From Moniliella sp. 'wahieum' (taxonomy: Eukaryota): a stretch of DNA of 64,000 nucleotides. Each line of letters opens with the position of its first letter. Positions within the stretch are counted from its first letter, which is position 1. Shown one piece after another: positions 6,533-62,260 of this stretch. Below the pieces are notes generated by a model. It was not told where the DNA came from. It did not search any database and worked only from the letters and a program-made list of their open reading frames with translations. The DNA lies in contig RSEE01000027.1 in NCBI GenBank assembly GCA_003971905.1, positions 124,001 to 188,000 on the forward strand, given 5' to 3'. A program made the translations under genes and the position numbers.

Positions 6533-6545
6533 AAGGGGGCAACGA

Positions 6546-10832: not shown

Positions 10833-13800
10833 GGCCAGGATCAGAAGGGTTACTCAGACGGGCAAGGTGGGCTGGGCGAAAGGCTAAGGACGCAGCGCTG
10901 GGATGCGCCGGGGCGGACGGTGTACAGTCGCAGGGAAGGCACGCGTGGCCTAGAAGGCGGCGGCAGGCGGGACGAGGCGGGATGAAGCAAAGGAGAAAAA
11001 AAGTGAGGGTGGGTGGGTAGGAGGGAGAGATGGCGTAGGCGAGTCCGAGTACCGCTCGAGAATAAGCGTACTCAGTACTCAGATCTCAGACTGAGTACTG
11101 ACTAGCTACGGACTAGTGACTAGTGACTAGACTGAGTGCTGTACTGATGTGCAGGTGGGTGGGTCGGACATACTGACACTGTGCAGCCGAGGCAAGAGGG
11201 GGCAGGTGGGTGGCGCGGCAGCAGCCCAGCAGAAACCGAGAACGGGAGCCACGATGCATGAGCCATGTGCTGAGGCGCTGAGGAACTGCGCTGGCGCTCA
11301 TGCATCATGCACTCATGCACTCATGCTTCAAGTGAAGCTTCAAGCGGGCCGCTGCGACGGGGGCGGCGCAGTGCCTGCGTGTGGCTGGCGAGCCGCAGCA
11401 TGCATGCGATCTGAGAGTTTGCGGCTGCGGTGTGCGGCAACAGACTGGTGCGCTGCCCTCCCGGCTGCTCGCTCGTGGATCGCACCCTACCGACGACCGC
11501 AGCCCCTGCAGAGCGCCAGCTGAAAAAATAACCGTCCGGGGGGGCTGCCTGGTGCTGCGCAAGCCCCAGTGACTAGTGACCCCCTGCGCTGCACAGGATG
11601 GTGCCCGCGACGCCACACGTATCGGCAAGGCCAAGGGCGCCACGCCAGTGCGGTGCGCTTGTCTCCGGTACTTGGCATAGATTGCCCCCCTTTTGCGCCG
11701 CGCTTACCTGTACATCATGCATCACAGCACCATGTCACGCCCACGCCCCATTGCGTCCCATTTCCCACAGTGGGAATGGGACAGGCGCTTGCTGATCGTG
11801 CGCGTGATCGACGATGGCCGATGGTCGATGCTCGGGCCCTTGCCGCCCTTGCTGCAACGGGGCAGTCTTGGGCAGTCTCTCATCGGCATCACACGGTCTG
11901 TTGCACCTCGCACCTCGCATCTCACATCTCACATCACATTCACATTCATCACATCCTCAGGTCGGAAGTAGCCGGTGCGAGTAGGCGATAGGCGGTTGAG
12001 ATCGGGGAGATCTGAGATCTGGGAGCACATAGCCCGAACGCTGGGTTGCAGTCCCAGCACTGGCAACCGGTAACGCGCAAGGCCTAAGGCCTAAGGCCTA
12101 AGGCCTAACGAGACTACCTCCACTGGTCACCTTGTCACGTGTAGACCTGCATCTGCTGTGACATAATTGCGATCCATCATCTCAGATCTCATCCGACTCT
12201 CGTTTTGTGTCTCCGTCGTGGACGGGCTCGATCCTCTGTTGGAATATACATCACCAGCATCTCCTCTCTTCCCTGTCGCCGTCAAGTATGCCACCCGCAC
12301 ACTTTCGGTTGCAACACCTGTCCGGTCGCGTACGCGTCCGCGTCATTGATCATTGCCCTTCAAAACAGATACAGCCCGCTCGACGCGATGATCGCATTGT
12401 CGTGTTTATACACTGCACCACATGCGGCAATGGAAGCCAGAGGCCCAGAGATGGAGGTGCAGGCAGCACGGGGGAATGCAGTCTGGTTACCCGTTACGGG
12501 TTACCTGTGAGGCTCTCTCCACCCCGCATGGACAACACATTTCGTCTCAATCAATCCCTTGCTTTAAGTTTTGTTCCTGTCTTTTCGTCGGCGGCTCTCT
12601 ATAGACACACTGGTACCACACCACACACCTCTGCGACGACGCCAGGGAACCAGCACCCGGAGAATGTCGGGAACCTCCGTTGGGTCTCGGCCTGTCTGAC
12701 TGGTTTCGCGTTGCTAATACACAATGGATGAAGGATCGCCAAACGCGCAGGATTATTCCCCTCATCGGCCTCATCTCTCATGTTCCGGAGCTGTGAAATA
12801 GGTACAGAATACGTTTGGTACACAGATATTGCGAAGAGGGTAGCTGGAACCCTCCCCCGTTTCACTTTGATGCTATATACGATTCTATTCCCCTTTTCAC
12901 TTGTGCGCATATAGCCCTTCCACCGGGAGGTATTTTACACGTTGGTGAGCTCCGCTACGTTGACCACCAGTGGTCAAGAGCCCTTCGGCCCTCACTGACA
13001 CGCGTGGCCCGTGGCCCGATACATAGTGCACCGGGGCAGGAGTCCCGGACCCTCCACGAGCTTCTACTGGCTCTGAGCCCGGTGCCCATCACTGCTCATA
13101 TAGGCCTAGCTCTCCTTCGCTCTGGAATACCACCTCCATTCCCCATCGCCAGCATCGCTAGCTAAGCCCGTGACGGCTGTGTGACTGAGCTGTCGAGGGG
13201 CCCATCTTTCGATACGTGCGGGGCCCGGGACACAACGGAGTATCCCGCGTTAAACGAGGGTTAACCGGTATATATACAATGTGTTTCTATTCGACTGCAC
13301 GTGCAAGCCAAGAGAATCATTGATGGATGTGGCAGCGGTGTGTATATCGCCAAATGACTGGTTGTTGCTAGAGTGCGACTGGGAGCACTCGCGATCCTAT
13401 GGATCAGCTGCAAAGCAGCCTTCGGACAAGGCGTGAAGGCAAATTGGTGGGCCACAAGTCTTCAAGCAACGCCTGACGGGAAGGATAAAGGAGAGAGAGA
13501 AGGGAGATGGAGCGAGCAGGGCGTGAGCGGCCTGCGAGCGGAACTCTTCCGCCTGGCTAAGCGAGCGTCATCGATCCATTGAGGGCTGTGCAGGGGAACT
13601 CGTACTACCCTCTAACAGTCGTGCCTATGCCCTTTGCACTTTGCCATTCCCACAACCTCTTCCATCCATGATGCATGACGCGTATGCGCATAAAAACGGT
13701 GAACGTTACTGTCGCAGTCGGGGCTAAGGCGAGGCAGACCGGAGTCTAGACAGGCCAAGGGGGTGTAGGAAACGTTGGTGGGGAAGAAGTAAGAGTATTT

Positions 13801-16103
13801 ATTAGAGGACTGGTGCGACGCGGAACAACACCGAAGGAGCGAGACGCTCGGGACGAAGAGCTTGGAAATGGGAGCGAGGTCCGCCAAACTATTATGACAG
13901 TACCTTTTGACCGTTGAACGCGGCAGTAGTGCATAATTTTGTAACGCCCAAGGCATACCGTGTAACATAACGCGTATAACGCGTAATATGCACACAAAAC
14001 ACCTGAAACACTCCTGCCGAGAGTCGCCACTTTTTCCTGGGGACGTTTGCCTAGAGCTGTGGTATTTTACAGGCTGCAGCAGTCTGAAGGCGGCTTCAAG
14101 CTTCAAGCTTCATGTGTCATGCATCATGGCTCACGTTGACGCTGTGGGCCGCTGATGCACTGATGGCGCTGATGCACTGATGTAGTATGATGGGAGATGT
14201 GCACTGTAATGCATGTAATGAGTCCATGGCTCGCTCAGCTGCATGTGACAGCGGTTCCAGGGATATAACTCGGGATAGGTGTCCCAGTACGTTTTCCCTA
14301 GAGGTTCTCCACCTCAAAAACAATCCGGTTTTCCCTTTCTCTTCCGGTCTTAGTAACACTTTTTGCTGTCAGCTTGAGCGTCAATACTCAACTTGAGTGT
14401 TGAGCCATTGAAGCGATGAACCTAACGTTGTCAGCATCTGAGTACTCAGCCGCGGAGGGTGACGCTAGTGACACCCACCGATACCACCGATACCACCGAT
14501 ACCTATCGAGAGCGGAAGCATGGATCGGGCGTTGCTGCATTTTTTGCAGCTGTTGTTCCAGAGACGAACGCGCCATCAGCAAGTCGCAAAGTGGCGACGG
14601 GCTGGAATCGCCGGAATCCGCTGCAATCTGATACAGGTCTCAGTCCTTGTTCCTGGATCCTACTAGCTACTCCCCTCCCAACCAGCACGAAACCTGGCGG
14701 CCAATGTGGACCGCGGATTGGCGGATCATCGATCATTAATCGTCTCGATCCATGAATATTGAATGGGGCCAATGGGAACACATGTGGGACTGGCACAGAC
14801 TACCACCTGGCTCGGCTTTAGGGCAAGGATCTGATTGCGAGAGCCGAGCAGCGCTAGCACGTGGGCCGCCAAAAAGCGCCAGCGCTGCTCTCCGCTCCGC
14901 AAGGTACTAGTGGCTATGATAGGCCCAAGACGAGATGATAAATTGGTAGTTATACATGGCATGATGATGATGATGATGGGCCCTCTGCTCGAACCCTGGA
15001 GCATGTGACTGGCCGGATGCCGTGTGCCAGCGACCAGGGTCTTTCGCCCGGCATCTGGCTCGGCAAGGGGGCTTCCACACCGCACACACCGCAGCCTGCC
15101 GAAACTTGCCGATGCGGGCGACCGCGGGCCACTGCACGGGGGGACAGTCAGTGCGCTTGGCGCCCAGGCTGCGCAGCAGCGCTGAGCGCACGCAGCTTGC
15201 GTTCCATTATCGCCTGCTTTTCATGATTGGGCCGAGGCCGAGCGCTGAGCACGGGGCTCTCTGCGAACAGCCCACGCGGCTGCGCAAGGCTGTGCGCACC
15301 GAGGCCAGCCAGAACAGAGGACCACCGTCGATCCTGTCATGTCTTTCTCCTACAGCAGGTGGCCTGCCCAACAGGGGCACCTGCCAGACGCAGATAGCAT
15401 GGGCAAGAGCAGGGAGCGAAAGTGGCAAGGAAGGGAAGGGAGGGAGAGAAGCGCGAGCGGCGCGACAGGGAAGCAGCCAGCAATTTCCGCGGGGGAAGAG
15501 GGTGGGGGTGTGCGTGCGGTTGGACATGGGATGGGCTGCGAGTGGCTGCTGGTTGTGACGTGACGCGTGAGGCCCACGCATGAGTACCAGGGATGGAGTA
15601 CCTGAATGGGGGGAGAGCCGGGCACTGGGGCGCGGAGGCAGACGAGGGCAGGCACGCAGGCGCAGGATGCCGAGGCAGGCTGCTGGGATCCCAGACAAGG
15701 GAGAGCTGCGAGCCCCTGGTATGTGGGGGCGGAGCGAAGACGCTGATAGGGACGGGCGCCGGAGAAGGCTTGGCGTGGCGCCGAGCAGGTGGTGGCATGC
15801 GGGAGCTCGGCAGCGCCTGTGTTGCTCGGTGGGTGCAGTAGCATGCGACCGCAGCCGTCCGAGCCCACGACACTGGCCGGCACCAGCCCACACTCGGCCA
15901 CTGCCCCCCGCTCGCTTGCTCGGCGCTCGAGAGCACGCTGCGGCACTGCGCAGCTGGACTCGGGCCCAGCCGGCAGCGCTGCTATCGGCAGTACACTGTA
16001 CCTGTACAGCAAGCACTCAACCCAGCCCGCGGCTTCGGACGAGCGCTGCCGTCTCTGGTGTGCCTGGCCACAGGGGGGGGTAGCAGGAATGGCCCGCCAT
16101 GCC

Positions 16104-18889: not shown

Positions 18890-19143
18890 GGCGGTGGGGG
18901 GGGCTATCTATATCTAAGACGTGCGGTTGGGGCTTGAGGTCGCATCACGTGAGAAGTGGGTGGGACGGTGGCACGTGAGATCTGAGAGGCGAGGCGGGCG
19001 GAACGGGGCGGCGGAAGACGCAGCAGGAGTACTGACTAGGGCGGCCGCCTGGCTGCACCACCTGGCCCAGGGCGCCCCCAGAAGCAGAAGCGGCGCCACC
19101 AGTCTTCGCCTGCGGCCGACGCCCCCCCCCCGCCCCCTCCGCC

Positions 19144-22575: not shown

Positions 22576-22677
22576 AGGCTAGGAGGCCAGGAGGCTAGGA
22601 GGCTAGGAGGCTAGGAGGCTAGGAGGCTAGGAGGCTAGGAGGCTAGGAGGCTAGGAGGCTAGGAGGCTAGGAGGCTA
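22576..22677. repeat. (AGGCTAGG)n 8-bp tandem repeat, about 12 copies
   Basis: Direct reading; one variant unit AGGCCAGG. Confidence 0.95.
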
Positions 22678-23039
22678 CGGGGCTATGGGGCTACGCGACC
22701 ACTCCTCTCCCCTCGCGCCTGCGCAACGCAACGCAACCATAGACGTGGCAGTGGCAGACAGACACGAAGCTCCGAGGCGAGGGGGGGAGGTGGAATTTGC
22801 CACGGCGAAACAAGGCAAGGCAAGGCAAGGTAAGGTGGTAAGGTGGTAAGGTACCTGGTACATGGTACAGTGGTACAGAGGCCAAGGGTGGCCGGTGGCA
22901 TGGCCATGGCCATGAGCATACCAACCCAACCAAACAAAAAATGGTCCAAAAAGGGCAGAAAAGCAAGCTGAGCGGGTAAGGGGGCGCGAGGGAGCGGCGC
23001 AAAACGGTAGCAGTGCCGTTCAGGATCAGGGGGAGTGGT

Positions 23040-25700: not shown

Positions 25701-26459
25701 GGGTGGGGTGGGGGGGGGGTGGCTGTGGCTGTGGTGGTGGTGATGGCTGTGGCGGTGGTGGTGGTGATGGCGGGTGCTGCTGCTGGTGATGGTGGTGAAG
25801 AGGAGGGTGCCAGAGCAAGGCAAGGCGTGGCTGCGCAACGGCAGGCGCGGGGAGAGCCCCCACAGCTCAACCCGCTCCAAGCTCCAACCCAGCTCCCAGC
25901 CGATGCGTGGCCGCCAGCATCACGCGTCACGCGTCATGCATGCGCCATGCAATGCCTCCCTGCAGTGGGCTGACAGTGGCAGGGTGCTGCGCATGCAGCT
26001 GAGCTCAGCACCGCGCCGGCTGCCACACCCGCTTGCTCCACCAGCGCTTGCCCCCACACTGCCCCTGCGCCCCCCCGCCGCTCCACCCGTCGGGCGTGCC
26101 AGCCACAGGGGCAGTCGCCTCCTGCCGCCCACCCACGGCCGATCCCAGTAAGCTCTGCATTCAAGCATACACGCCCCCTCCCTTGCAACTTTCACAGCTC
26201 CACCCGACCTAACCCACCCGCGTCCGACGCTGCCTATGAGTACTGACTAGACGCACTAGCATCCGCCGTAGCCCCCATCCCCACATACCTCGGCGAGAAG
26301 CCAGCGCCTGTGCCGCTCTTGGTCACCTACGCCCCGCTGGTCAGATGCATCTGCGCCATCGCCATCACCATCACTGCACCAGAGCATGAGCACTCAGGCC
26401 GAGTACTCAGCTGAGTACTGAATATCCATCGCATTCCTGCCTGCTTCTTCCCCCTGCAG

Positions 26460-39302: not shown

Positions 39303-42300
39303 ATGCCCACCGACCCCTCCGCCGAGCTGGGCCGCATCGGCGAGCTCAAGCGCTTCACCCTCTGGGAGACCCGCACCCACTTCTATCTAGTCGCATACAA
39401 CACCGCCCAGACCCGCTACCGCGTCCTCAAGGTCGATCGCTCCGTCCCCCAGCCCGCCCAATCAGCCCCATCCGCCCCATCCGCCCTCGGCCCCATCAGC
39501 CTCATCAGCCCCGTCGGCGCCACCGGCCTCGCCGGACCAGCACCCACCATCGCCGCCCCCGCCTGACCCCAGCACCCCCACAGCCGCTGCCTCCGGCCCC
39601 CACTCCCTCCATCGCTGGCTCCACTGCCGCGCCATCCGCCGCCTCCAGTGCGGCCAAGCACACCCTCCCGTCTTCCCTTGCCGCCTCCACCCCTCCGCGA
39701 ACACTGCCATCCCCGATAATGCGTCTCTCACCACCGCTGGCACTGTGGCACCTCCCTCTGCCCTCACATCCTCCCTATCCTATTCCGGCCCAGCTCCGAG
39801 TACAGCCACCACTGTCACCGCCACCCCGCTGCTCCCGCCCCGGGCCTGTCGGACCATGCCAGTCGCGCCCCCAATTTTTCCTTGTCGGCCAGCGGAGAGC
39901 CCTATCTGTATACTAACACGGCCGAGCGTGCTGTGGCGCCTCTGTATTACGCTGCCTCGGACGACCCTCCCGCGGAGGCGACCAGGGTGGCACAGGGGCC
40001 GCACCGACTCTGGCTCAGTCCAACCAGCAAGGCGTGCCTGCCTCCCACACCCCCATCCCATCCATCGCCCCCACCACCGTCACCTCTCCCAGGGAAAAAC
40101 TGAAGTGCCTGACCCTCTCCCAGCTCCGCCCCCGAGTGATGCAAGTGCCCCCGCCTGGCAGCTCAACATTGTTGCTGATAAGGTTGTGTATACGCGAAGC
40201 CAGATTGACATGCTCCTTGATGCCTTGCGGGAGGGCAACAAAGCATCTGGCGGCCTGACTGATCTGGGACGTTTCTATGGCATCGTCGGCTTTGTGCGGT
40301 TTACGCTGGGATACTACATGGTCCTCATCTCGCGCCGTTCGGTCGTTGCCCTTGTTGGGGCCACTACATTTACCACTGTGACGACACCTTGGTTCTTCCG
40401 GTAAGCGATCCAGCCCAGCTTGCAGCGCTTCCAGGCAAAAGCAAAGCGCGCGACCAAGCTGAGGCGCGGTACTTGGCCATATTTCGTCAGGTCGACTTGG
40501 CCAAGAACTTTTACTTTAGCTACACTTACGACTTGACCAACACTCTTCAAAACAACCTCACCGCCCCGCCCCCAAAAAACGGTCCGGATTCGTCTGCTTC
40601 GCCACCTGATGGGTACACTGCCACCCAGGCCCGCTACCAACCCCTGACCGCGTGGGGATTCAACGAAAAATTTGTTTGGAACCACCATCTGCTGATGCCA
40701 GCCTTTGGTTCCTCGGTCCACCACTCACCCCGTTGCAGCAGCTGGGTGGGCGACGCCTTCTGGATCGAACGAAGAAGATCTGACTCCCGCGGGAAGTGAG
40801 TGGGTCCTGCCACTGGTGTATGGGTTTGTGGACCAAGCCAAGCTGTCCGTGCTGAGCCGGACAGTGTACGTGACGCTGATCGCGCGGCGATCGAGGCATT
40901 TTGCTGGTGCCCGCTTCCTCAAGCGAGGCGTGACCGAGCATGGGCAAGTAGCCAACGATGTGGAAACAGAGCAGATCGTCTCTGAGCCACTTACCACTTC
41001 CTTCTTTGTCCCGGCTCAAGACCGTACTTTGGTGCACCCACTGCCACCGCAGGCCATCCGTTCGCAGCTGAGGGCAGGGACGAGCGGAGCGCGGCAGGGA
41101 CTGTGGGCGCCTTGTCCCCGGTTCACATCCTATGTGATGCATCGCGGCTCGATCCCGGTGTACTGGACCCAAGACTCGACCAATATGAGCCCGCGTCCGC
41201 CGATCGAGATGAGCGTGGTGGACCCATACTATTCAGCAGCCGCGCTGCACTTTGACGATCTCTTCCGTCGTTATGGGGCGCCGGTGATCGTGCTCAACCT
41301 AATCAAGGCAAGGGAAGCAGAGGAGTCCAAGTTGCTCTGGGCGTTCAGTGAGTGCATCCAATACCTCGATCAATTCCTACCCCGTGGCGCGCTCAAGTAC
41401 ATTGCCTGGGACATGTCCCGTGCCAGCAAGTCCCACGACCAAGATGTCATTGGCGTTTTGGAAGACATTGCGGAGGAGACGCTGGACGCAACCCAGTTCT
41501 TTCACTCGGGCCCTCCTGCCTCGTCTCGCTCTCAGCACTGGTCAACTCGGCGGGACCGGGAGGGGCCACCTCTGCTGCGGCCGCGGCCGAGGCAGCCGCC
41601 TGCCGAGGAAGCGTCCCATGGACAACCCGCTTGGATTCAGTTGCAGTCTGGAGTGGTACGAGTCAACTGTGTGGATTGCCTGGATCGTACCAATGCGGCG
41701 CAGTTCATGATTGGCAAAGCGGCGCTGGCTCATCAACTGCGGGCGTTGGGTTTGCTGGCAGCCCCCTCACTCCCGTTTGATTGCGATGCGGTCAACATGC
41801 TGACCGAAATGTACCACGATTTGGGCGATACGATTGCACTGCAGTGGCGGATCGCACTTGGTGAACACGGTGGCCACCTATCGCAAGATTAATGCTTGGT
41901 CCTCCCACTCGCGTGACATGCTCGAGGGCTTGAAGCGATACTATGCCAACTCGTTCATTGATGCCGAGAAACAAGCCGCAATCAATTTGTTCTTGGGCGT
42001 GGACGATGCGCCGGGGCCCGGTACGTTCTCTGCCTCTGCTCTGTCCGGACGCGCTGCCCCACGCATCCGAAACAGTCAGCCATCGGGCCCCAGCCTTAGT
42101 TCCGCCACCTCCGCCACGCCCACTTGCCCGCCAGTGGGCACGGTCAGCCGTGCAGGCGTGCCTGGGCTCGCCAACAGCGCTGGTCCGTCCTAGAACGCGT
42201 CAACCATCCACGCTACCGTGACTGGTACGTGCCGGCCCACATAAAATCGTTGCAGACGACGGCGGAGCGGGCGGATCGGCAAGCGAGGCTCGCCGCCGTT

Positions 42301-44237: not shown

Positions 44238-46162
44238 TTCATCATGATGGTATTATACACTTACGGATCTGGGGTGGTGGGTAACCCAGTCTATGTTTCC
44301 CCGGCCGCTGGGAACATGCCAACATCGTACAGAATGTCAGATTCACTCTGTGCTAGGCTTGGCCCACTAGACCCGTATGAGCCCCTAGGTTGTGATTGCT
44401 ATCAGTTGGGAGATCTTGCGTTCACATTCACCTCTCAGCTGTGCCCCTTCCTTCTGCGGTGCTACATCTGAACTTCTAGTCCGTCCATAAGTCCATGATG
44501 TTTGCAATATCCAACTGCTTCCCTTTCCTCTACCTCACGTTTCCTGACACAGAAGCATAGCTGATGGGAGCGTGTCCCTGTGCTCCTTCGATGATCGCGC
44601 CCGGTGAGATAGGCTGTGTGCGCAAGAAGAGGATGGGGTGAATGGAGGGGGCGTTTGGAAGTCGAGCGATTCCATGTATGCATGTCTCGTATAGAGCGCT
44701 CCCGTTCAACACGGCGCACCAGTCTTATCAGCTTCATGCCACAGAATACGCATCCATTGAGCCCCAAACATCTTGGAACCTTGGGTTCTTCGCGGATTTC
44801 GCTGTTTAGTATAGCATAGCAACGTCGAAAAAAACGCATTTTGTGGGAACAGGACCGCCCCCCGCGTCGGTGTGCAGGTGTGTGACGCTACACTGGTGTA
44901 GTGGCGCCGGCGGCCCAAGTCCGGAACCTTCGAGTTCATTTCTTGCAATATTCCTTGGCGGGCAGGAATATTCTCTAGCCTCTTGCACACACCATCATCT
45001 GTCTGGTCGCGTGTCTTTCACAATGGATTCACCTGTGACGAGCGGGGGAGTCGTCGCACGGTAACCGACCGTAAGAAGACAGCACTGGGCTGAGGCGCTG
45101 AGGGTAATACAATGCTAGGCCAAAAAAGCTCTGTGTATAATAATTGTGCGAGGCGCCGGCCCCGTTCCGCTTCTGTTCCGCTCCTTCCTGTTCCGCCTCC
45201 GGCTGCCTTCCCCTGATTGCATCCACATCACCTCTTCACCTGCCTTGCTCGCCTGCCACTGCCACATAACATAAGAGGAGGTGCCCTGTGTACTGTGGGA
45301 CGGAAACAAGTCAGGATAGGTCACCTAATCTTTCAGAGTGCACGAATAGCGAGCAACAGCGAGCAAGGTCGGCTTCGCGACCGCCTTGATCAAAGCCATG
45401 TTCGCGGCCAGTGGTTACCTGGTTACGCATTACGCGTTCAGTGCTACATGCATGACATCACACATCACACACATCACAATACACTGGAACGGTCTGAGAT
45501 CTGAGACTGGAGTTCTGACATGGCAGAACATAAGACCTGAGGTCAGGAGATCTGAGACCTGGGGTCAGCTAAGGCGCTGAGGCGCTGGGGCGCTGAGGTC
45601 ACCGGTCAGGCCAGGCCCAGGTCTCATGATCTCATCGATCACATCATACCACACACATCACGCATCGTCGGCCACCCTAGTCACCGCGTCACCGGCCAGA
45701 CAACCAGGACCGAAGGCGCCCCTAAAATTATAAAAGGCCAGAGGCCTATAACCTGTAACATGTAACAGGGCCTAAGGCCTAATGCATAATGCAAAACTAG
45801 CCTAACTAGAGCAACAGCTACCTGGACCCCTTCTGAGTGGGGCCTGATACACGAGGGCTGGTAGATGCATTATCGATCCTTGATCGATGCCTGAACGTCC
45901 TGAACGTCCTGAAATCGGCTGGTCTCCATCACAGTCAACGTCAACGATGCGAAGTGCCAAGTGGACCCATCTAAGTGTCTGAGCCCCAAGTTGATGGCGA
46001 TTGCGTTTGCTCCCACACCTCGCTACCCTGTTCTGTATCTCCTCTTAGATCTAGATCTTAATTACACACTTCCCGTGCCACTTCTTGAACTCCTCCCAAA
46101 CAACGATTGTGAATATTAAATTGCCGGCAAGTTGGTCAAGCTACGGCAAAAACACTCAACCC

Positions 46163-49100
46163 TTTTTACAACGTCCATTTCATTGGCAGACTTAAGAAGG
46201 CGGGACAGGGGGAACGCTACGTCTAAACCTAACCGTTCATCTTGCGGGGGTTACTTAGGGGCGCCACCAGGGTCAAGGAACCAGGGGGATCGCCAGGATA
46301 TCAGGACCCTCCGGCTCATGCCATCCGGTCCGCCCTAGGAAGCGCGTATGGACACGGAGGAACGTGGTTGACATCCGAGCGAGGAACCACTTCCACTGAG
46401 ACTTAGTAGCCAAACTCCTTCCAATGCGCAAACAACTTGCTCGCCGTCTTGGTGCCATAGTATACCTCGCGTCCGTCAAAACCAGGGGGAAAACGTCTCT
46501 TGAGTGCGTCCTGGTACTGTGGCGTTCTTCTCGCATTCTGCTTGTTCAAGCATCCGAAGCAGTCATCTCTCCCGGCGTTCCAAGGGGGTTGCGGTGCTCG
46601 CGGTGCACCACCCTCCGGAACGCGCTCTCGCTGCCAGTGATCCCGTGCGCGCAGCGTGTGGTCGACCTCCATTCCTGATCCTCCCAGTGCTCCGGGTCCC
46701 ATCACGCGGTAGTCAGTGCGCTGTGTCCTCTGTCTCCGGCCATCCTCGTCCTCCACCATTGGTTCGTTGTGGACATGGGTGTCGGGAATGGAGCGTAGGA
46801 GCTGGAGAATGGGCTCCCGCACGCGTCATGCAACGCTCCAAACTTGGCCTGGGAGCGAGTGCAATACATGATGTGCTCCAGCGAGGACATGACACCGCAC
46901 TTGCACATGCTGCGCGTGGTGCGGCACAGCGTGCGGAGCTGGAGGCCAACCTGGACCTGCTGGTCGGAGAGCCTGAGGTACGGGACGGACGGAATGGCGG
47001 AGAGCCAGTTGTGTGCTCAGCGGGTTGCTGTGCTCAACCACGTGACGACCATCGGCAGCGTCCAGCTTCTGGAGCAGCTCCTGTCGACTTTTCTCCCACA
47101 TCTCGCGGCAGCGCTGGCGTTGCTTCGTAAATGCGTTGGCCTCTGCCGTTTGCGGTCCCGAACGGTCAACATAAGTGGTAATAAGTAGTCGTTGACCTCG
47201 TTGGCCGCGGCACGGGCGTGGGGCGCGATATACGAGTAAAGCGGGCTGCCGCATCCTCCTAGCCGGAGAGGCAGGCTCATGAGCATGTCGAAGGTCGTCC
47301 TTGGCACCTTGGGGATCCTCGTCGCCCCGGATCCGTCTGAACTCCGTACAGATGAAGGCATCGATCTCGGCCAGCACTTCGTCTAGCTCTCCTTCCATCT
47401 GCATGGTGCGGAGCAGGTGGCGCAGCTTGGTCTGAGTGCTGAGCCCCATAGTAAGAGGCGTCCCTGGCGGGTGATGCCATCAAACTTAGGCATGTCTCCC
47501 TCAGACTGGCCAGTTGGGCCCGAGCCACGATCGACGACAGTCTACCCCTCCCACACAAGTGCCCAGAACCTGCAGACCATCCTCCCGGATCTGGTCCCGG
47601 TCCGCTCGACGCACTTGCGCAGGTTTGAGCTTGAGGCCTGACGCGTCGTCTTCCAAAATCTCCGCAGCTTGGCCGGTAATGCCTGGCTCTGGACCGAAAA
47701 TGGTAATGTCGTCCAGGTATGCCATCACCAGGTGCCCCGGCGGCAGAGCAATGCTCAACTCTCTAGCGTGGGCCGCACTGCGATGGAGAAGAAAAAGGGG
47801 CGAGGGGGTCGCCCTGCCGCACGCCCTCTGCCGACAGGACGCTGGTCTCATTTCCGCCCGACGCAACCCAAAGCTGGGTGGGGGAACCATAGATCCACCG
47901 GCCCAAGGTGAGGAGGTGGGGGGCTAGGCATGGAGCGCCTTGGCGAGTGTGCGACGGCGCACAGTGTTGAACGCGTGTGGTAAGTCGAGCATGGCGACGT
48001 GGCTGAAGTCGCCCATTTCCGCATCGTTCTCCCCGCTGGCGCTGTCATGCGCTCGACCATCCGCACGATAGGCTCCACCGTTTGCGATGCTTACTCCCAG
48101 CTGGGGTGGGGAGAAGCCAGCTGTTGGGTTGATCGCTCGAGCGATGGCCTTGCGCACAGGCGGTAGATCAGCTCCCCACAGGCGATGGGGCGGATACCTC
48201 CCGACTTTCCAGGGGTTAAGGCGGGGAGGCCAACAGGAGCTCGCGTCCAGGGGCAGTGCCGTGGTAAATACTTTGTGGGCGGTGAGAAAGGTGACGAAGC
48301 GTTCGCATCCAAGGGCCGTTTTCAGGAGGGGCTGGGTCCACCCGGATAGACCTGCCCCAACGTCGATTCTGAACGTGGCAATCAGAGCAACAAAGTCGAT
48401 TTCGTCCAAGTCCACCACGATGCGGTTACTGTCCGTCGTGTCGGTGAGGGTGGTGCCCGGCGGTACCTCGCGGCCTGTGTGGGTAGGACGAGTGCGGCTG
48501 GAGGCGTTGCTGAAGGCTGTGCCCGGACCGAGGTTGAAGGGGTTCGCCTCTCCAACGGGGTGGAGCTTTTCCAGGCTGCCTGGGTCTCGGGGGTGTGAGA
48601 GGGCAATGGTGGATTGGCCGACGAGGGTACTTGCTGCACGGCTGAGGCAGCCCTCCCGAATGAGGCGATTGGCTTTGGTGACTGGGTCGGGAGCTTCGCG
48701 CGTTGAGAAGTGGGGGGGAGGGAGTTGCCAGGCCTTGTTGGGATACGTCCCGATGAGGTCATGTCCTTGTTGTGGTGGCGAGAGTACTTCCTTCGGCACC
48801 GCTAGAATATCCATCAGGTGTGCGAGGGCTCCTGCAAGTAAGCATCTGCCAGGCGTTCGAGCATCTTGAGGAAAGGGCGCTTCAGGTGTGGCGGTATCTT
48901 GCGGTGCCTGGCGTTCGGCAAGGGCGGTCAACGGGGGAGGAGGTCGGCCCCCGTGTCGGTCGAGGGGTTGCGCGGCCGTCTGGTGGTGGTGGTGGTGGTG
49001 GGGGGGGGGGAGGGGGCGGGGTGGTGTGCGGGGGCGAGGGGGGGTTGAGGGGTGAGGGTGGCGGGGGCGGGGGGGGCTGTCTGCGCGGGGGTGCGGCGCG

Positions 49101-49680: not shown

Positions 49681-52249
49681 AGGGCCTATAAAGCCTAACA
49701 AGAGCTCAAGCCCTAATAAGCCCTACGCGCTAAGCCTCTGCCATGTACTAGCTCTGCCTGGTCCAACTTCGGAGAGCTTTAGCGCTAAGCTTTTAGCGCT
49801 TAGCTAAGCCTTGACGCTGTTTTTGATTTGAAGCTGCTTGATGCTTGATGAGCTTGATGCTTGATGCTTGAAGCTTGAAGCCTCTTGGCCTCAAGCTCCT
49901 GAAGCCGGAGGAGGAGGCTGATCCTCAGCCAACCTCGTTGCCAGACCTGCGTTCTCTAGAACGCCTCTCTAAACACGCAACTCTCCATCACCCAAGCAAA
50001 TTAACGCGGGGAACTCAGCTTGTTCCCCGTTACGCGTTCCGGTTACAAGGGGTTACGCGTGTTATGCACGCTCCATGCACCATGCTACCATGCTATATGC
50101 GACGCGCCCAGCTGCGTTGAAAACTGTGAATCAACTTTACAACCATTTACTACAATGTTTTAGGCCTTAGGCCTTGGGTTCCAAGAGGTTCAACACTGCG
50201 TTCAACTGAGCGGTTAAAAGCTCGCGTTCAAGCTTTTCAGCTTCAAAAGGTACTTCTTATACTGGAGGCACTGTGCTGCCGGTCCTAGGTACTTAAGAAC
50301 GGAATGTTGAACACTGGTGCCGGGTGGGCAATGCAGCAATGCGTGTACCGCTTTTGATTGTTACCTGTTATACTTTGGCACTTCATATAACCACAGCACA
50401 GCAAAAATGAAAAAGGCGCCATGGACCACGCACACTCTCTCTGACACGCCGTCTCTACGCTATAGAGGAGGGCTAGTAGTAGATAGTAACTAGTAAGGCC
50501 TAAGGGCAGGTCCAGCGGTAAGAAAAAGCGAGAATCGATCATCAATCATTAATCAGCCCCATAACGTTTTGCGTTTAACATCGAGGAGCGGGGGTTGACC
50601 ACGTTGACCGGTGATCGATGATCCGAGGCTATTGGATGGCGAGTGTTGCGGGCTGGCAGTTTGTTTGTTTGAATGACTTGAGTTGATACTGAAACAACCA
50701 CGTCGGACCGAGGCGCCGAGGCCCGAGGAAAGCTAGTACTAGTGACTAGTGACTAGTAGCTGCTAAGTAACTAACTCGCAAAAGAGCCGTTTTCTACTCC
50801 ACTAGCCACTCCCGCTGTTGGCTTGGCAGATGGTGCATGATGTGCATGATGCATGATGCATGAGATCGAGAGCAGAATGATAGCGATGCCACGTGTCCAT
50901 GTCAGTAGCTATTTGCAAATTGCACTATTCATCACGCATCAGACGTCACATCAGATCTCAGATCTCAGATAGGTCTTTCCCATCGTGTTCACCTGCATGT
51001 CACACTCATCCAGCTGCCAAATGAGCTAACTTTGCCAGAAGCCCCAGGTACCCGTTGCACGTAGACGGTGGCCAGTTCGAAGCTTGAAGAGCTGAAGCTA
51101 GCTTAAATTTTAACGCTTAATCGATAATCAGTACTCAGTACGTTCAGTAACTAGTAAACGTCTAAGTACGTTAACGTTGACGTTGTTAACATTGTTCACT
51201 GAAGATTGAGCACGTTCAACTCTTCAACGTATTCGGTCCTTGGACCGTCCACAGTCGGTCCTCAGGTTCTCAGGACCATCCATACTTGGTACTTGGTATC
51301 AAATCGGTACCGAACCGTTCCAGCAATGTTCTCGGCTGCCGATGGTGCAGCACTGTCAAGGAACGCCCTCGGTGTCACGGGCGGGCGCCGCCAGGGGGCC
51401 CGCCCTGGGGGTTTTTGGGGTACAATCCCTTAGGAGACGGAAGGTCGACTCACGGTAGTTTCGGGCTTGGGCTGGTTGGTGTGTCCGAGCGGAGCTAGGG
51501 ACAAGGAGAGGCCTTTGGTGGGGCGGCTGCAGGTGTGGCAAGGCTGCGTCTACACCGGCTTGGGCCGTAGTAACGTGTCTGAAGCTCCGGGACTTAGGGA
51601 CGGAGGAGGCAGCGGCGGACAAACACTGCCTTAACTGAGACGGGAATCGCCGCGACCGAAGGAGGGCTCGCGCGATTGGACTGACGAAGGGCTGGAGGAC
51701 GAGGTCGGAGGAGAAGTCGGACGCTAACAAGAGAAGCTGCCTGTACTGGATAAATTGGCTGGGAACGGCAGGGGTCGGACAGGATAGGCGGGAAAGGGAC
51801 GAAAGTAGAGACGAGAAAGGACGAGAATGGAAGGTGGGGGAAAAGATCCCATCAACCAGGGGTACAGGCAGGATCAAAAGGGAAACGGGTACAAGAGGGG
51901 GTGTAGAAAGGAAGACATGTCAAAAGCGGGGTTGGTCGCCGCAGGCGCGACCGAGAAAGGAAAAGGAAACGGGGACGAGGCGGCAGACGCCGCACGGCAT
52001 TGGAAGCTCGGGGCCTTATTTAGGCCGGCCGACGTGGACTGGGCGGGAGGCGACTGTTGTCGCGCTGAGCATGGCCCTCGGCCACGATACTTAATTTAGC
52101 CAACCATCATCACAATCGGTTGGCCTGCGGAGCACGCTCTACTGGGCCTGTGCGGAGCAGACGGGCCTCAGCTTCGGTCGGACCATCTCGTGTCCGCCGC
52201 AGCCCGTGACACTCGGCGTTCGGCGTCACGCGTGCAACGAGGTAGTCGG

Positions 52250-52850
52250 AGTAATTAGCTTTTACACGTTTACGTCGTTTAACGTTTAACCGACAGGGTG
52301 CAGCACTACTGCCTGCTTCACAGCTTCGAGCTTCACTTCAAGCTTCAAGCTCTTCAAGCTGCAGCCGCTGAGGTTCGGCTCGGCTCAGCTAATGCACTAA
52401 TGCTTAGTGACCGTGACCGGTGACCGGCGACCGGTGACCAATGCTAATTGTCACGCGTCACGCGTCACATATCACACGCTAAGCATTCGCAATCGTAAAG
52501 CTAACCAGCGTAAAGCTAACCAGCGTAAAGCTTAAAGCTTAAAGCTAGAAAGCTTAACGCCGCGAGGAATGATCGATGGATCGATGATCGATGGTCTCGA
52601 TAATCGATACTCGATAATCGAAGTCGCTAATCATTATCACCAGCAAAGCTCAAAGGAGGGCGGCTCGCTCAGTGCGCTCAGTCCGTTCAGTGTTGTTCAG
52701 TGGTTCAGTGCTGAGGTACTGAGTACTGACCCGTGGTCGCTTGAAGATTGATCGGTGATCAAGCGTGACGCGTGACGCGTAACGCGTAACGTTACTAGTC
52801 ACTTGTCGCGGCCACTGGTCAATAGTCACCGGTCACCAGTCATCAGTGGT
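52250..52850. repeat. Densest array of 7-bp nnTNAnn tandem/palindromic units (see findings)
   Basis: CTTCAAG-CTTCAAG-CT-CTTCAAG, (TGACCGG)n, (TCACGCG)n, (TAAAGCT)n, TGATCGA, TGAGTACTGA, (TGACGCG)2TAACGCGTAA, TCACCGGTCACCAGTCA. Confidence 0.85.
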
Positions 52851-53060
52851 CTCTCCGCCGGCCGTCACGCTCACGCTTTGCGGTTGACGCACTCGTGTTG
52901 CCACTACGTCGCATAATCCACCAGGCCTCTACGGCGTTGGGGTGGTCGGTCTCCCAAGGGAAAATTTCCAGCTTTCTACCGCCCACTCGCTGGTGCATCC
53001 GCTACCACCACCACTTCGCCCTTGCCGCCCCCTCCACCGCTGTCAACACACCGCGCTCCG

Positions 53061-55892: not shown

Positions 55893-57665
55893 ATGGCAAG
55901 CGACCCCGATGCTGGCTGGCGCTTTGCCCAATGCTTTGGCGACAAAGGCGAGGTCAAGGAGATCACTGAGGGTGCGTTGTGTCGCCCTACCTTGGCTTCC
56001 CGTCTCTGCCTCTTCCCATACTCCCGCGGCTGCGCTCGGCGCAGTGCGGCAGGGCACCTAGAAGATGTTCTGCTCTGCTAACCAATGACTGACCTGTACC
56101 CCCTTTGTTGTTGCCTCACCCCCTGTTCAGCCGACATCATCTCGGCGGTTGAATTTGACCACACTGGAGACTACCTTGCCACTGGTGACAAGGGAGGACG
56201 TGTGGTGCTCTTTGAGCGCAATGACTCGGTACGTGCTCTTAGCATTAGGTGGCTGGACACTTGGCCCGATGGGAATTCGAGAAAGGGAGGCCCCAGCAAG
56301 GCGAAGGAAGAGGCGAGTACTGACGATATGCGATCCAACAGAAAAAAGGTGCGAGTACAAGTTCTACACCGAGTTCCAATCGCACGAGCCCGAGTTTGAC
56401 TACCTCAAGTCGCTCGAAATTGAAGAGAAGATCAACAAGATCAAGTGGTGCCGAAGGCAAAACGCAGCCCATTTCCTGCTCAGCACCAATGGTGCGTCAT
56501 TTCCCGCCCCCGCTTCTCCAGCTTACTGACGCTCTGGACTTTTCCTGGACAGACAAGACGATCAAACTGTGGAAAGTGTTTGAAAAGTCGCTGCAGATGG
56601 TGGCAGAGACAACCTGTCCGAAGGTTTTGCTCCCCCTGTGCTTACACTTCCCGCGCGCTTGTTGACCCAGGGAGCGTCGTTCCTGGCAGCGGGATGCACC
56701 TCCGTCTGCCGCGGATCAACATCCACGACACGATTGTGGCGGCGTACCGCGCAAGATCTATGCCAACGCACATGCTTACCACGTTAATTCCATCTCGGTC
56801 AACTCTGATGCGGAGACGTACATGTCAGCGGACGACCTGCGGATCAATCTGTGGAACCTTAACATCTCGGACCAGTCATTCAACATGGTTGACATTGCCG
56901 GTCAACATGGAGGAGTTGACCGAGGTGATCACTGCCGCCGAATTCCACCCGGTCAACTGCAACCACTTTGTCTATTCCTCCTCCAAAGGCACCATCAAGC
57001 TGGCAGACATGCGCGACTCGGCGTTGTGCGACCAGCATGCCAAACTGTTTGAGGAGGAGGAAGGGGATGCCGCGTCGAAATCCTTCTTTTCCGAAATCAT
57101 CAGCATTTCGGATGTCAAGTTTTCCCATGATGGCCGCTACCTCTTGTCGCGCGACTACCTGACTCTGAAGGTGTGGAGTCAACATGGACCGTGCCCCCGT
57201 GGCCACCATCCCGATCCACGAGCACATCCGCTCCAAGCTGTGCGACTTGTTACGAGAACGACTGCATCTTGACAAATTTAAGCGCTCTGGGGCCCAGACG
57301 ACAAACATGTCCTGACTGGTTCGTACAACAATTATCTCCACATCTTTGACAAGGACCAGCCCGACCCGGCTGCCAGTGGCGTGACGCTGCAGGCAGACAA
57401 GAGCGCGTTTAAGAACAAGAAGCTCGGCGGTAAGGGCCGGGGCAACACACCGGGTCCCGGGCCGGTGGCTCAAGTCGACGTGGACAATGTCGACTTTAGC
57501 AAGAAGATTCTTCACGCCTCGTACCACCCGCGTGAGCACACTGCTGCCATCGCAGCAACCAACAACCTGTCTCTTTACAGCCGCTGGGGCTGGCCAAGCA
57601 CCGCAGATGGTGCAGGCGGTGCAGCCTCCGGCTTCCAGACCATGCCTGCCCAACCGGCCATCTAA
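55893..57665 (+). CDS. CDC55: Protein phosphatase 2A regulatory subunit B55 (Cdc55/Pab1)
   Basis: [128 protein letters not shown]; introns about 55973-56130, 56229-56341 and 56492-56552. Confidence 0.96.
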
Positions 57666-60600
57666 CAAAGCCGGGGGGCAGACCGACGAATAATCTGACG
57701 AATGCTCCACAGCCCTTGTGTTGGAGGCGAGCAGTGAAATTGGCGAGGTTGGAAGCTAGAAGTTGGGGGCTCCCATGGGGCCTGAGATGGCGTAGCTGAA
57801 CATTCATTGCAAGTATAACACATGTACGGGGACGATACGCAGTGTGCATGGATGGTGATGGATGCCCATGACTGTCTGGGCTGAAAGGATGGGAGTTGGG
57901 AAGAGATAGGCGTGGTTCGTAGAGAAAACATTGACGTCGATGATGACGTCGATGTCATGTTGGGCTGGGCAATGGCGCAGCTCTGCGAGAAAATCAGGGG
58001 CTATAGGTAGGGCTGCGATCTGCGATGGTCTGGATCAAAGATCAACCTGATTGCTGAGCTCCAGTGCCCCATCATGCATCATGCATCACTCTCCATGCCA
58101 TGACCCGGTCCGATCAGAGCTGGAGGTGACTGAGAGCCTGCAAACCATACGGGTTGTGGCTCAAGTTGAGCTCCAACATCGTCAAGGAGAGGATGAAGAC
58201 GAGGGAACGATGACGAGTGCGAAAGAAATAATAGGAGCGGCACTGACACCATTGGATGAAGGTGGATTCCGGGCAATTCTTGGTGGGGTGTGGGATGCTT
58301 TCGATCGATGCGTCGAAGAGGGGATAAAGGCGATCGATAGCGGAACCGATATTGAAGAAAGTTAGTTGATTCAGTCTTTTTCTGCTCGGGCGAGAGGCAG
58401 TAGTTGTGCTTGCCTTGGACACAGGACATTTGGCTGGTATAACTCAAAAGAATGGCTCGGCTCCTCGTTTTTCAGAGCTGTTGCACGTAACCGTAACAGA
58501 GGTCAAAAAGGGTCAGATTGACACCAAGGGAAAGCCACAGAATGATGAGCGTTTGAGCTCTGTGTCCATATTGTCTAACGTCACTTGCTGGTGTCGGCAA
58601 AACGAGACGTTGAAGGTTGACAATGTTGACAAGTTGACATGTGCATGCTCAAGGGACGCATTTTGTCCAGGATTATATAGCTCTTTGGCCCTTCTCCACG
58701 AAAAGGCCACAGGCATGTCGTGGGAGAGAGGAGAGGGAAGAGCCACACCGGTGACCTACCACTGCATCCTGTCATGTTCAAGCGAGGGGGGTAGGCACAT
58801 CGGAGCGCATCAGGTGCTGATGAGCATCGACCGCAGTGGTAGCCGATGGGACGAACATACAACACGGGTAACTGGTAAAATAGTTATTGCATGGATGTCA
58901 TCGATAGTGACCTTACTACTAAGGAGTGATTAGTGACTAGTGATTAGTGGTCGCGGATCATCGATTACTCCAGTAGAGCACATTCTGACACTCTGCGCCC
59001 TCGATATGCCAGGCGCTCGCACGCCACACGGATGCCATCGATGGATGAGGCTTCGCATTGGGTCGTCCAGCGGGCGCCCAAAATGGAGCCAAGGCCGCCT
59101 ACGTACATCTGTGCCCGCCGGCTCTTGCAGCTTGGCGAATGCGGAGAATGATTAATGAAGCGTTTGAAGCTTATCAGAATAAGCTTGCAGCGTGCTTCGG
59201 AAGCTTGAAGCTTGAAGCTTGAATCATATCTAGGCTGTGGAGCCCCGCTCGGGCCTGGGGAGGGTACCTGTGGGGGCACACGTTACGGCGATATGCATTA
59301 GTCGTTATCGGGCGGGGTCGGAACGGCCGGGACGCATCATTGGGACTTGGCGTATAGGAAGGGCGGGGAAAAGCTGGAAGGCAGAGCAAGGACGACACGT
59401 ATTATGTTGTGACAAGGGTGGGACACAACATGCAAACAGGTCTCCCCGTGGGATGAATTGCGCAGGGTCCACGGGTGGCGCCGGGTAGCTCTTGTCTATA
59501 GTTTAGTTTAGTGGGGGAGCCAGGGTTCGTGTGGGTCTTGCTGCGTTGCCTATGACAAAAACAACTGCGCAATCCATCACGTTCTGCGGGGGGCCGTGTG
59601 ACGCGTGAGGAACCTGAGTGGGGGTTACGTGTTACGCAATTGGGCCAGGGATTCTTTGGTCTATACTACTCTCAGGAGTATACTCCGCACTGATGTACTG
59701 ATGCAATCACTTTCAAGCATCAAGAAGAGTCCAATCCAAGCCCAAAAGGCGTTTCAAAGACGGGTCTATCATCCCAGGGTTGCTACCACGGTTTGCGTGA
59801 AAAGCGACTACGTAGCTCAGCTAACTCTGATGGGTGTTTGATGATAACGCGTAACGGTGGGTATATTAGTAGACCGGAGGGCCCAAGCTCTCGGGAGCAA
59901 AGCCTTTTGGGCATGCAATGCAATGCAGCCGACGGTGGTTGAAGCTTGAAGCTTGAAGTGTTGAGATCTAATTAAGGCTCTCATGATCTCATGCACCATG
60001 TGCATCACGGCACGCCACTTAGGAAAAGACAGGGGTTCGAAAAGAGGCCCCGTTGTACTCACGTGTATTAAGAGGTCAAAGAAGGGGAGAGGATAGTCGA
60101 TAGATGGGTATACGAGTGCTGTGAAGAGAGCGCTGATGCATGATAGGGAGTCTGAACATCTGAGTGCTAATGTTGAATGCTACTGTGCTGAAGCGGCGAG
60201 CAGGATGCTGATTCGCTTTGATGGAGAACACTCCTCGGTACGTTGGGCGTCACATGTGGGGGTCGGATGAGAGACGTCCCAAGGAAGGGTGGAGATGCAT
60301 GGCATCCGAGAGGAGATATGGCTGAAGCGTTTGTGGTATGCTCTGTTTTAGGCACCTTGACCTTTTCCCGGGAGTATATATATACGGTGCGATCTCCTGA
60401 GATCATCGATCAGACCTTGGCCGAAAGGAGCGCGAATTATGAATCGAACATGGCTATCCGTCTGCATCAACCCACAACCATCCTGAATTATCAATTACAG
60501 TCCAAAACCGCAACGATGGAGCGGCTGTTGTGGCCGAAGCGAAGGAAGGATGATTCATTAGATTGATCAATGTGTTTTTGGCTAGGTTCTAGGGATCTGG

Positions 60601-62260
60601 GAGGTACGTGGTTACATGGTTACAACGGTGAAAGGCTGGCGTGGAGGGGGGATGCGTGGGATTTCGCATGCAGCATGACAAAAAGTCTCTGCGAAGCGGC
60701 GTGCTTAGAATGAAACTTTTGATGGTGGAAGATGGGGTTGGATACTGGGGCCACCGTGAGAGTCGGGCCGAATAGGCTGCTCGTGGCAAAGTATCCAACA
60801 GGGTGGCGAGCTGAGCGCGCTGAGTAACCGAGGACCGGGCGTAGGCCGTCGACACCAACCAAACTTCGCGGCCGCAAAACACGCCGGGGTAAGCGCTAGG
60901 CCCTGGAAGCCAACCGAGGCCGCACCGAGGCCGCACGAATGGCGTCCCTGACCGGTTACCTCACCGGTGATTGGGTGACCGGTCTCCTGCGGTGACCAGT
61001 GACTACTGTGTTATAGTACAGTAGCAGTACCGACTTCAAGCTTCAACGTTCAACGGAGTCGTGACTTCAAGCTACCCTAGTTACTAGTTACTAGTGATTA
61101 ATGATGATCGATTAGTGGCTTCAAGCTTCAAGAGCTTCAAGCTTCACTAGCACTAGTGCTAATGACTAGTGAGAGCTAGTGAGGCCGAGAAGAAGCAAGT
61201 CAGCTAGTCAGATAGGGAGGATTTGACGAGATCAGTACTAGGTTCCTGTGGCCATCAACGAACAGTCGTTAGGCTTTTTAGGCCTTGGGGTTCCAGCGCC
61301 CAGCTCCAGCATTATAGAAGAGCTGAGCCGCTGATGCAGATGTGTGATGGCGTGGACGTGTCCGCGGTACCGCTGGTAATCACCGGCTTCAGGGCCCACA
61401 CGCTCACGGGAAGGCGCGGCAAGTTGTGGAAGGTTTTTAGCTGAAGACCTAAAAAAACTAACGCCGGACTACTAGTAACTAGAAGTAGTAACTGCCGAGG
61501 GGCCGGTAAGCCGGGTGGAGGGCCTGCTGCGAGGCAAGGCTTTCGTGACGGAGCGAGGAGGCGGTGGCGGGAATCGGGAAGAAGGGTGCGTGGCGGCTGG
61601 CTGGTGCGCTGGACGAGCACGGGGGCGGACTGAGTTGGCGAGGGGATGGCTGGAGGCTATTGGATACGGGATGGCGCTGCGATGGGGACGTGTGCGCTGT
61701 GACATGTGACCGGTGACCGGTGACATCACGTCGGGCAGCACCACGTGACACTGTGACGCGGCAGACACATGGCAGATCGAGGGCAGGGCGGAGGATGATA
61801 TCACCGCTCGACCAGAGATCATCGAACATGCATGCATGCCCGCCGTGCTTCCGCTGCATGCGATGCGGGCGGGCGGCGGGCAGGGGGCAGTGGGGGGCGG
61901 GAAAAAAAGGAGGGAAATGCTGGGGTTGGGTGCTGCTGGCTGGTGCCGCCTGGGGCTGGCCAGGGCGGCGTGCGGCCTGACGCCTGACGCTTGAGGCAGC
62001 GCAGCACAGCAGCCGACCGCCCGTGGCTAGTGGCTGGCGCCGGGCGCCCGGGCGGCTGGCGGCTAATAGCACGCGGCTGCCAACTGCGCTTTTCCCCAAA
62101 CCACCATCCGAACGACACCCACGCCCAGAAGCAGCCACCCCAGGCCCCGCCCCGCCCCGCCTCGCCGCCCACACCGTCCGCCCCGCCGCCCACACCGTCC
62201 GCCCCCCTCACCCCCCCCCACCGCCACCGCCACCTCCATCGCGCCCTCACCCGCACCCCT

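Follow-up and report, generated by a model that had tools for sequence, protein, structure and literature searches.

Genes and repeats of the window

The sequence analysed here, a 64-kb stretch of contig RSEE01000027.1 from Moniliella sp. 'wahieum' (hereafter the window), is nuclear DNA of a basidiomycete from the smut subphylum Ustilaginomycotina. Its non-coding DNA carries numerous short duplications of 7 base pairs (bp) centred on the triplet TNA, and the origin of these duplications is the subject of this report. A 398-aa open frame at 40696-41892 encodes the SacI domain of a Fig4-type phosphatase, and its best named relatives, from Violaceomyces, Tilletiaria and Pseudozyma, share 66-68% identity with it. 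Further frames encode GH30, a protein kinase, SLA1, a protein O-mannosyltransferase and CPSF1/Rse1-type propellers, together with a Ste24 peptidase, a Gti1/Pac2 family protein and an AreA-like GATA domain. The GC content per 2 kb ranges from 0.50 to 0.66 across the window. An initial annotation had described the repeats as 7-bp duplications with added palindromic (P) nucleotides, resembling the excision footprints of a transposase or nuclease, and all 11 strings that it cited were recovered at their positions.

A repeated unit of fixed form

Among exact tandem duplications in the window, 7 is the commonest short period, with 63 maximal runs compared with 24 at period 5 and 53 at period 6; full-length tandem runs number 15 at period 8 and 14 at period 9. 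A 6-bp palindrome is present, when the unit is read cyclically, in 38 of the 62 non-homopolymer period-7 units, and all 38 have the form A-NNNN-T. The unit is therefore best described as a TNA triplet, a 4-bp palindrome and a second TNA triplet. With the same N in both triplets this motif occurs 96 times in the window (TGA 37, TCA 37, TAA 16, TTA 6), whereas 2.03 occurrences are expected from 30 block-wise second-order Markov simulations that keep the local trinucleotide content. The corresponding motif built on any of the other 60 triplets, pooled, occurs 117 times against 74 expected.

When all spacers between same-N TNA triplets were scanned, a spacer of 4 nt alone stood out (169 pairs against 30.8 simulated; 96 against 2.05 for the palindromic subset), while enrichment at other spacers was at most about 2-fold. 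Palindromic spacers of 5 nt, with an odd centre, were found 7 times against 1.5 simulated. Palindromes that reach through the triplet (TNA-palindrome-TN'A) are rare, with 4 cases, which points to short P tracts like those described for Candida in PMC5873905. Same-N triplets enclose 15 of the 16 possible 4-bp palindromes, so no single sequence is being copied. Chance is excluded as the origin of this pattern.

Ends of the unit as template for the palindrome

If L2 and R2 denote the dinucleotides beside TNA and rc the reverse complement, a templated palindrome is either rc(L2)+L2 or R2+rc(R2). Among 44 isolated two-copy events, the palindrome fits the left flank in 15, the right flank in 10, both in 7 and neither in 12. 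At least one flank was thus matched in 32 of 44 events; after shuffling of the flanks among the isolated events in 2000 permutations, the mean was 6.48 and the maximum 16. The rule is most apparent at TNA-centred sites with asymmetric flanks. Here 26 left-templated and 31 right-templated events add up to 57 symmetrised sites, compared with only 9 plain duplications of the same 7-mer, and the simulated count for each of the three classes lies between 0.05 and 0.15.

Two further classes of events had been proposed in the initial annotation. In the first, two copies of a 7-mer are separated by 1 or 2 nt that repeat, as reverse complement, the adjacent end. For 2-nt spacers this proved correct when tested against chance: in 10 of 14 TNA-centred 7-mers repeated across such a spacer, the spacer equals the reverse complement of an adjacent end (chance ~0.125, binomial p ~6e-7), and an (ATG)n microsatellite accounts for one of the other four. 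The second class comprises triplets in which an asymmetric middle unit lies between its left-symmetrised and right-symmetrised versions. All three triplets cited in support are exact, and two more were found at 50485-50505 and 61698-61718, giving five exact cases. The events with 2-nt spacers place the axis at the ends of the 7-mer and not of a 3-mer or 5-mer, so the symmetry axes lie exactly at both ends of the 7-bp unit L2-TNA-R2 centred on N. The isolated events (32 of 44), the asymmetric sites (57 symmetrised, 9 plain) and the 2-nt spacers (10 of 14) uphold the core of the annotation, namely that 7 bp centred on TNA are duplicated and that the ends of the 7-mer template the added palindromic bases, as hairpin opening would do. 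Retention of both target copies with junction bases that are the reverse complement of a flank end, as seen here, is the feature of a flank-hairpin footprint.

Target preference

TNA makes up 3.7% of all triplets in the window, yet it is the host of most events. A further 36 events of 7 bp follow the flank rule around other central triplets and do not overlap the TNA arrays. Half of the site (T-- or --A) is kept in 21 of these 36, against a background of 35% (p = 0.004). Symmetrised events of this kind lie, for example, at 598, 6708, 10482, 12345, 13632, 34117, 51286, 58014, 59624, 60666 and 63774; the one at 34117 is inside the CPSF1/Rse1-like gene region and possibly intronic. In the reconstructed ancestral sites of 32 events, no other preferred position was seen within 13 nt on either side. 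A graded and symmetric preference of this kind is what a dimeric DNA enzyme would give.

Distribution of the events

The 96 matches form 64 separate loci, and 76 of the matches fall into five intergenic regions that total 14,354 bp. The coding-dense bins at 28-38 kb and 54-58 kb contain none of the 96. The span of 11070-61148 that had been assigned to the pattern is too narrow, as events also occur at 388-1809, 5574-5589, 6228-6237, 8421-8844 and 61698-61723. The two densest fields, 49700-52850 and 58000-61500, are long upstream regions of regulator genes: the former lies upstream of the Gti1/Pac2 family gene between divergently oriented frames, the latter upstream of the gene for the AreA-like GATA factor. 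The principal features are listed below (coordinates on the forward strand; palindromes and flanks between or beside TNA triplets in lower case; events named by the net gain in nucleotides, so that +9 denotes a duplicated 7-mer with a 2-nt spacer).

388-1809: TTA acgt TTA (388), TGA gatc TAA (500), TCA agct TCA (1381), TGA tcga TGA (1628), TCA cgcg TCA (1747) and TCA tcga TCA (1800), all outside the span of the initial annotation
5574-5589: CTTAAGC-AG-CTTAAGC, a +9 event in which AG is the reverse complement of CT
11068-11130: mixed triplet ac TCA gtac TCA gatc TCA ga (11070-11090), TGA gtac TGA and (GACTAGT)x2.9
12079-12108: (AAGGCCT)x4.3, that is cc TAA ggcc TAA ggcc TAA ggcc TAA cg, in which the left flank cc templates the palindrome
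14093-14220: (GCTTCAA)x2.9, a chain of TCA triplets whose spacers vary, and TGTAATG-CA-TGTAATG (14205-14220) of the +9 class, with 2 P nucleotides as spacer
45749-45913: TAA chain with cctg and catg spacers, mixed triplet CCTAAGG CCTAATG CATAATG (45771-45791) and (CCTGAACGT)x2.7
49835-49881: TGA chain with TGCTTGA repeats, CTTGATG-AG-CTTGATG and GCTTGAA repeats
50485-50970: dense run of events with mixed triplet AGTAACT AGTAAGG CCTAAGG (50485-50505), GTTGACC-AC-GTTGACC followed by ccgg and tcga units (50594-50621), (ACTAGTG)x2.9, CATGATG-TG-CATGATG with (TGCATGA)x3, and (TCAGATC)x2.9
52276-52842: upstream of the Gti1/Pac2 gene, CGTTTAA x2, CTTCAAG arrays with CTTCAAG-CT-CTTCAAG, GTGACCG x2, GTCACGC x2.7, TAAAGCT x3, GATCGAT x2, GCTCAGT-GC-GCTCAGT and a TGA/TAA cgcg chain
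58070-59993: CATCATG x2.7, (GAAGCTT)x3.4 (59200-59223), (TTGAAGC)x2.9 (59939-59958) and TCTCATG-A-TCTCATG (59979-59993)
61034-61146: mixed triplet CTTCAAG CTTCAAC GTTCAAC (61034-61054), the chain TTA ctag TTA ctag TGA ttaa TGA, and CTTCAAG-AG-CTTCAAG (61126-61141)
61698-61724: mixed triplet TGTGACA TGTGACC GGTGACC and one more ccgg unit

Five 31-nt strings of TCA units (CATCACGCGTCA...), at 1745-1775, 14101-14131, 25918-25948, 52456-52486 and 58070-58100, are ~71-74% similar to each other and are probably convergent products of the same process rather than copies of a dispersed repeat. Around TCA tcga TCA there is an 11-bp duplication (ATCATCGATCC x1.9, 1788-1808), which matches neither the +7 class nor the predicted +11 product discussed below. 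Other repeats in the window are of different types. Its longest array is an 8-bp tandem repeat, (AGGCTAGG)x14.8, at 22576-22693 with 95% matches, which departs from the TNA rule; in addition, there is a run of 21 G at 6316-6336 and a perfect hexamer array, (GCAAGA)x10, at 6474-6533. Segments of ~500 bp at 5078-5600 and 46157-46690, on opposite strands, form an inverted paralogous pair with arms that are 74-94% complementary and ~41 kb apart; the pair looks like a duplicated gene fragment.

Comparison with other DNA

For comparison we used 80 fungal-type metagenome contigs (898,552 bp) that were found with the Fig4 frame at 45-58% protein identity. They contain 51 TNA-palindrome-TNA motifs, or 0.57 per 10 kb, whereas the window has 15 per 10 kb. 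Events on TNA that obey the flank rule number 80 in the window and 2 in all controls, and the closest control contig has none in 20,951 bp. Period-7 tandem runs reach 9.8 per 10 kb in the window and 1.25 per 10 kb in the controls; the A-NNNN-T palindrome is present in 1 of 104 period-7 units of the controls as opposed to 38 of 62 here. For other short periods, too, the window exceeds the controls 2-3 fold. Among the DNA compared, contigs that are not from close relatives, the signature belongs to this genome. As regards polarity, the diverged inverted paralog has a single CTTAAG at 46187-46199, where the +9 event lies at 5574-5589 in the other copy.

Discussion

Excision footprints with P nucleotides are textbook knowledge. 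The hAT, Transib, RAG and Mutator-like element (MULE) transposases form hairpins on the flanking DNA, which host enzymes open and end joining closes (PMC5499845). Excision of Ac/Ds in Candida leaves short palindromic P insertions, which have been explained by flank hairpins, opening away from the apex and end joining (PMC5873905). In our judgement the chances are slightly better than even that the units in the window are scars that a DDE transposon of the flank-hairpin type, with a 7-bp target site duplication (TSD) and a preference for nnTNAnn, has left by inserting and excising, with repair by end joining. From the geometry we infer the element itself, a hairpin intermediate, the offset of its opening and the choice between overhangs. 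The transposase would attack its target with a 7-bp stagger and a strong preference for nnTNAnn, so that L2-TNA-R2 is duplicated on integration. Excision would then seal both flanks as covalently closed hairpins, with the apex at the end of each 7-mer copy and without a 1-nt offset. A host nuclease would open each hairpin about 2 nt from the apex and thereby create self-complementary 4-nt overhangs, whose sequence would be R2+rc(R2) at the left flank and rc(L2)+L2 at the right one. End joining would usually keep one overhang and clip the other to the duplex, which would yield the TNA-palindrome-TNA unit with a net gain of 7 bp, the dominant class. In rarer products both 7-mers would survive, separated by 0, 1 or 2 P nucleotides (+7, +8 and +9), and 9 plain +7, 6 +8 and 10 +9 events are counted in these classes. 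A model in which either overhang is kept predicts that both orientations are equally frequent, and 26 left-templated and 31 right-templated events were observed. With 3 P nucleotides and a join at the T, the variant favoured in the initial annotation leads to identical products and is indistinguishable from the overhang model. In either case the 7-bp duplication would require staggered strand transfer followed by gap filling, for which a nuclease cut alone should be insufficient.

Two processes, alone or together, could build arrays: renewed hits on the copies just formed, and replication slippage. The initial annotation had attributed their growth to repeated hits. The five mixed triplets, which need two separate events at neighbouring copies, support this view, whereas arrays of identical units could equally be formed by slippage.

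Several observations weigh against a transposon as the source of the units. In 12 of the 44 isolated events the palindrome matches neither flank, and these events need later flank mutations or another source. Spacers of 1 nt, for which the same templating had been claimed as for those of 2 nt, fit in 6 of 10 cases, which is not significant (chance ~0.44). The predicted +11 outcome, in which both overhangs are kept, has no case in the window. Arrays of at least three identical units, about a dozen, exceed the prediction of random re-hitting, and slippage therefore probably contributes. With 64 loci in 64 kb, the element must have been either very active or at work for a long time. A scan of the window for terminal inverted repeats (TIRs) bounded by a 7-bp TSD gave seven candidate pairs, in which identical 7-mers flank inverted termini, and none is credible: four run from array to array and three are GC-rich. 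None of the 239 open reading frames of at least 110 aa in the window has a transposase Pfam domain, host genes being all that was recognised, and neither hAT dimerisation nor BED domains occur among them. A repeat scan of the window found no repeat resembling a transposable element. Finally, the evidence for polarity consists of one diverged inverted paralog only.

The 8-bp target consensus of hAT elements is nTnnnnAn. The unit repeated in the window is 7 bp long, which departs from the 8-bp TSD of canonical hAT elements of the Ac/Hermes type, and its palindromes are even-centred, with 96 even 4-nt spacers against 7 odd 5-nt ones. Among the families named in the initial annotation canonical hAT is thus the worst fit, because of the even-centred palindromes, while the broader assignment to the flank-hairpin class is retained. 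Transib and RAG, known for V(D)J coding-end hairpins and P nucleotides, likewise form the hairpin on flanking DNA, and their duplication is 5 bp. Ac/Ds scars in plants, budding yeast and Candida albicans are similar to those described here in that both TSD copies stay and short flank-templated P insertions are added, but they differ, as described in PMC5873905, in an 8-bp TSD and in odd-centred palindromes centred on the complement of the element-adjacent base. The scars in the window have instead a 7-bp unit in which position 3 is T and position 5 is A, and their palindromes are even-centred. The MULE Muta1 has a flank hairpin of 43+43 nt, hence without offset, which would predict even palindromes; MULEs differ in a TSD of 8-10 bp as opposed to 7 bp here, and Muta1 in that more than 90% of its excisions in yeast are precise (PMC5499845).

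Transposons with a 7-bp TSD have been reported in Basidiomycota, namely hAT7 in Pucciniales (rusts) and Kyakuja in Laccaria (Kojima 2025, PMC12730594). This length agrees with the TSD that the plain duplications, the duplications with P spacers and the symmetrised +7 scars of the window suggest. Both were described from rusts and an agaric, the strings 'Ustilag' and 'Tilleti' have 0 occurrences in one supplementary file of that paper, 193,142 characters long, and neither such an element nor its transposase was found in the window. In rice, excision scars are a genome-wide source of small indels, as the units would be here, but a plain duplicated target was left in 8 of 94 excisions and the rest showed deletions or filler DNA (Roffler and Wicker 2015, PMC4423477). 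The outcomes in the window are, by contrast, highly stereotyped and dense enough for microsatellite-like arrays. The signature is therefore filed under flank-hairpin excision footprints in general and not under a single family. Tentatively, as a possibility that we rate well below the transposon explanation as such, the source could be an undescribed and very active lineage of flank-hairpin transposases, or something derived from it, that is specific to this lineage of Ustilaginomycotina. Its stagger at nnTNAnn would be exactly 7 bp and its hairpins would have no offset. It would be the dominant source of small non-coding insertions, steadily turning arbitrary sequence into palindromic hexamers and heptamer arrays and thereby generating microsatellites and potential dimer-binding sites.

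A host enzyme could also break nnTNAnn sites with no mobile DNA involved, either as a Kat1-like domesticated hairpin-forming transposase or as a nuclease with a 7-nt 5' stagger. Fill-in of the stagger would duplicate 7 bp, and hairpin opening or polymerase turn-around would add the palindromic bases. Such an enzyme would account for 64 scar loci in a window in which no element, TIR or transposase was found, and for the very stereotyped outcome (57 symmetrised, 9 plain, 10 at +9 and 6 at +8); moreover, a domesticated hAT transposase of a yeast makes hairpin-capped breaks (PMC4763223). Still, we consider this reading unlikely. Judging from PMC5499845, hairpin formation by a transposase would cut both strands at one position and duplicate nothing, and a nuclease with a 7-nt stagger would give mainly plain duplications, which are the minority here (9 against 57). 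It would also imply programmed breakage of intergenic DNA throughout the genome without evident benefit. The domesticated nuclease offered as an alternative in the initial annotation is accordingly less likely than a true mobile element, since cutting by itself leaves no 7-bp duplication.

Template-switch footprints are a known class of mutation, and like microsatellite slippage they produce small palindromic or tandem changes without selection. Slippage could have duplicated 7 bp, quasi-palindrome template switches could have symmetrised the junction, and TNA could reflect a local bias. Both processes predict no fixed 7-bp unit, no TNA centre and no flank-templated even palindromes at asymmetric sites. 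Slippage yields direct copies only and is not the sole mechanism, given 57 symmetrised against 9 plain events and 38 of 62 against 1 of 104 palindromic period-7 units, although it may still expand arrays. In fact, the period-7 arrays reach up to 4.3 identical units, which slippage would be able to extend, and the 2-3 fold excess of other short periods over the controls also speaks for a replication-based origin. A template switch requires a pre-existing imperfect inverted repeat; flanks at the majority of sites are asymmetric, and the ancestral sites show the T/A preference only, so that these sites would have had no palindrome beyond T and A to start from. A palindrome of 6 bp would, besides, be too short for efficient template switching. 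The ~47-fold preference for TNA, graded via half-sites, points to recognition by a protein, and the signature is nearly absent from the 898,552 bp of controls (2 flank-rule events, 1 of 104 period-7 units of this type). An origin in replication alone therefore appears rather improbable.

That the A-NNNN-T hexamers form cis-regulatory arrays under selection, to be bound by dimeric proteins in the long promoters of genes for regulators, has a very slim chance of being correct: the densest clusters do lie upstream of the Gti1/Pac2 family gene (49.7-52.8 kb) and the AreA-like GATA gene (58-61.5 kb), but the use of 15 of 16 palindromes leaves no common recognition sequence, a palindrome dictated by the flanking dinucleotide follows a mutational and not a binding-site rule, and events occur elsewhere in non-coding DNA as well.

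Other origins were rejected. A 3-bp duplication of TNA with filler from a transposon terminus does not agree with palindromes that copy the host flank and of which 15 of 16 kinds occur, and a 5-bp duplication is ruled out by +9 events that repeat whole 7-mers. An 8-bp hAT duplication on an even axis would need nAnnnnTn, which appears to be absent from the reconstructed ancestor of the triplet at 11070. Tc1/mariner scars of the form TA-CWG-TA have the wrong centre and the wrong period. Selection for stop codons in all frames would be at odds with stops on one strand only and with TAG being unused.

A full-text literature search, with most subscription journals outside its coverage, returned no description of TNA-centred heptamer scars, of an nnTNAnn 7-bp geometry with even palindromes, of scars growing into heptamer arrays or of a genome in whose non-coding DNA a single stereotyped type of scar predominates. 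If the transposon explanation is correct, the window would hold dozens of natural outcomes of hairpin opening and end joining per 64 kb, and the genome by extrapolation thousands, all from one enzyme whose target is simple, as a record of how a basidiomycete repairs hairpin-capped breaks. The combination of a 7-bp nnTNAnn duplication with even palindromes would provide a sharp search image for the responsible element, which might in turn be a compact and efficient transposon tool for smut-type fungi. It would also follow that tandem repeats and palindromic motifs in promoters can originate from nothing more than transposon scars, and that arrays of palindromic heptamers in promoters need not be binding sites and would have to be interpreted with caution.

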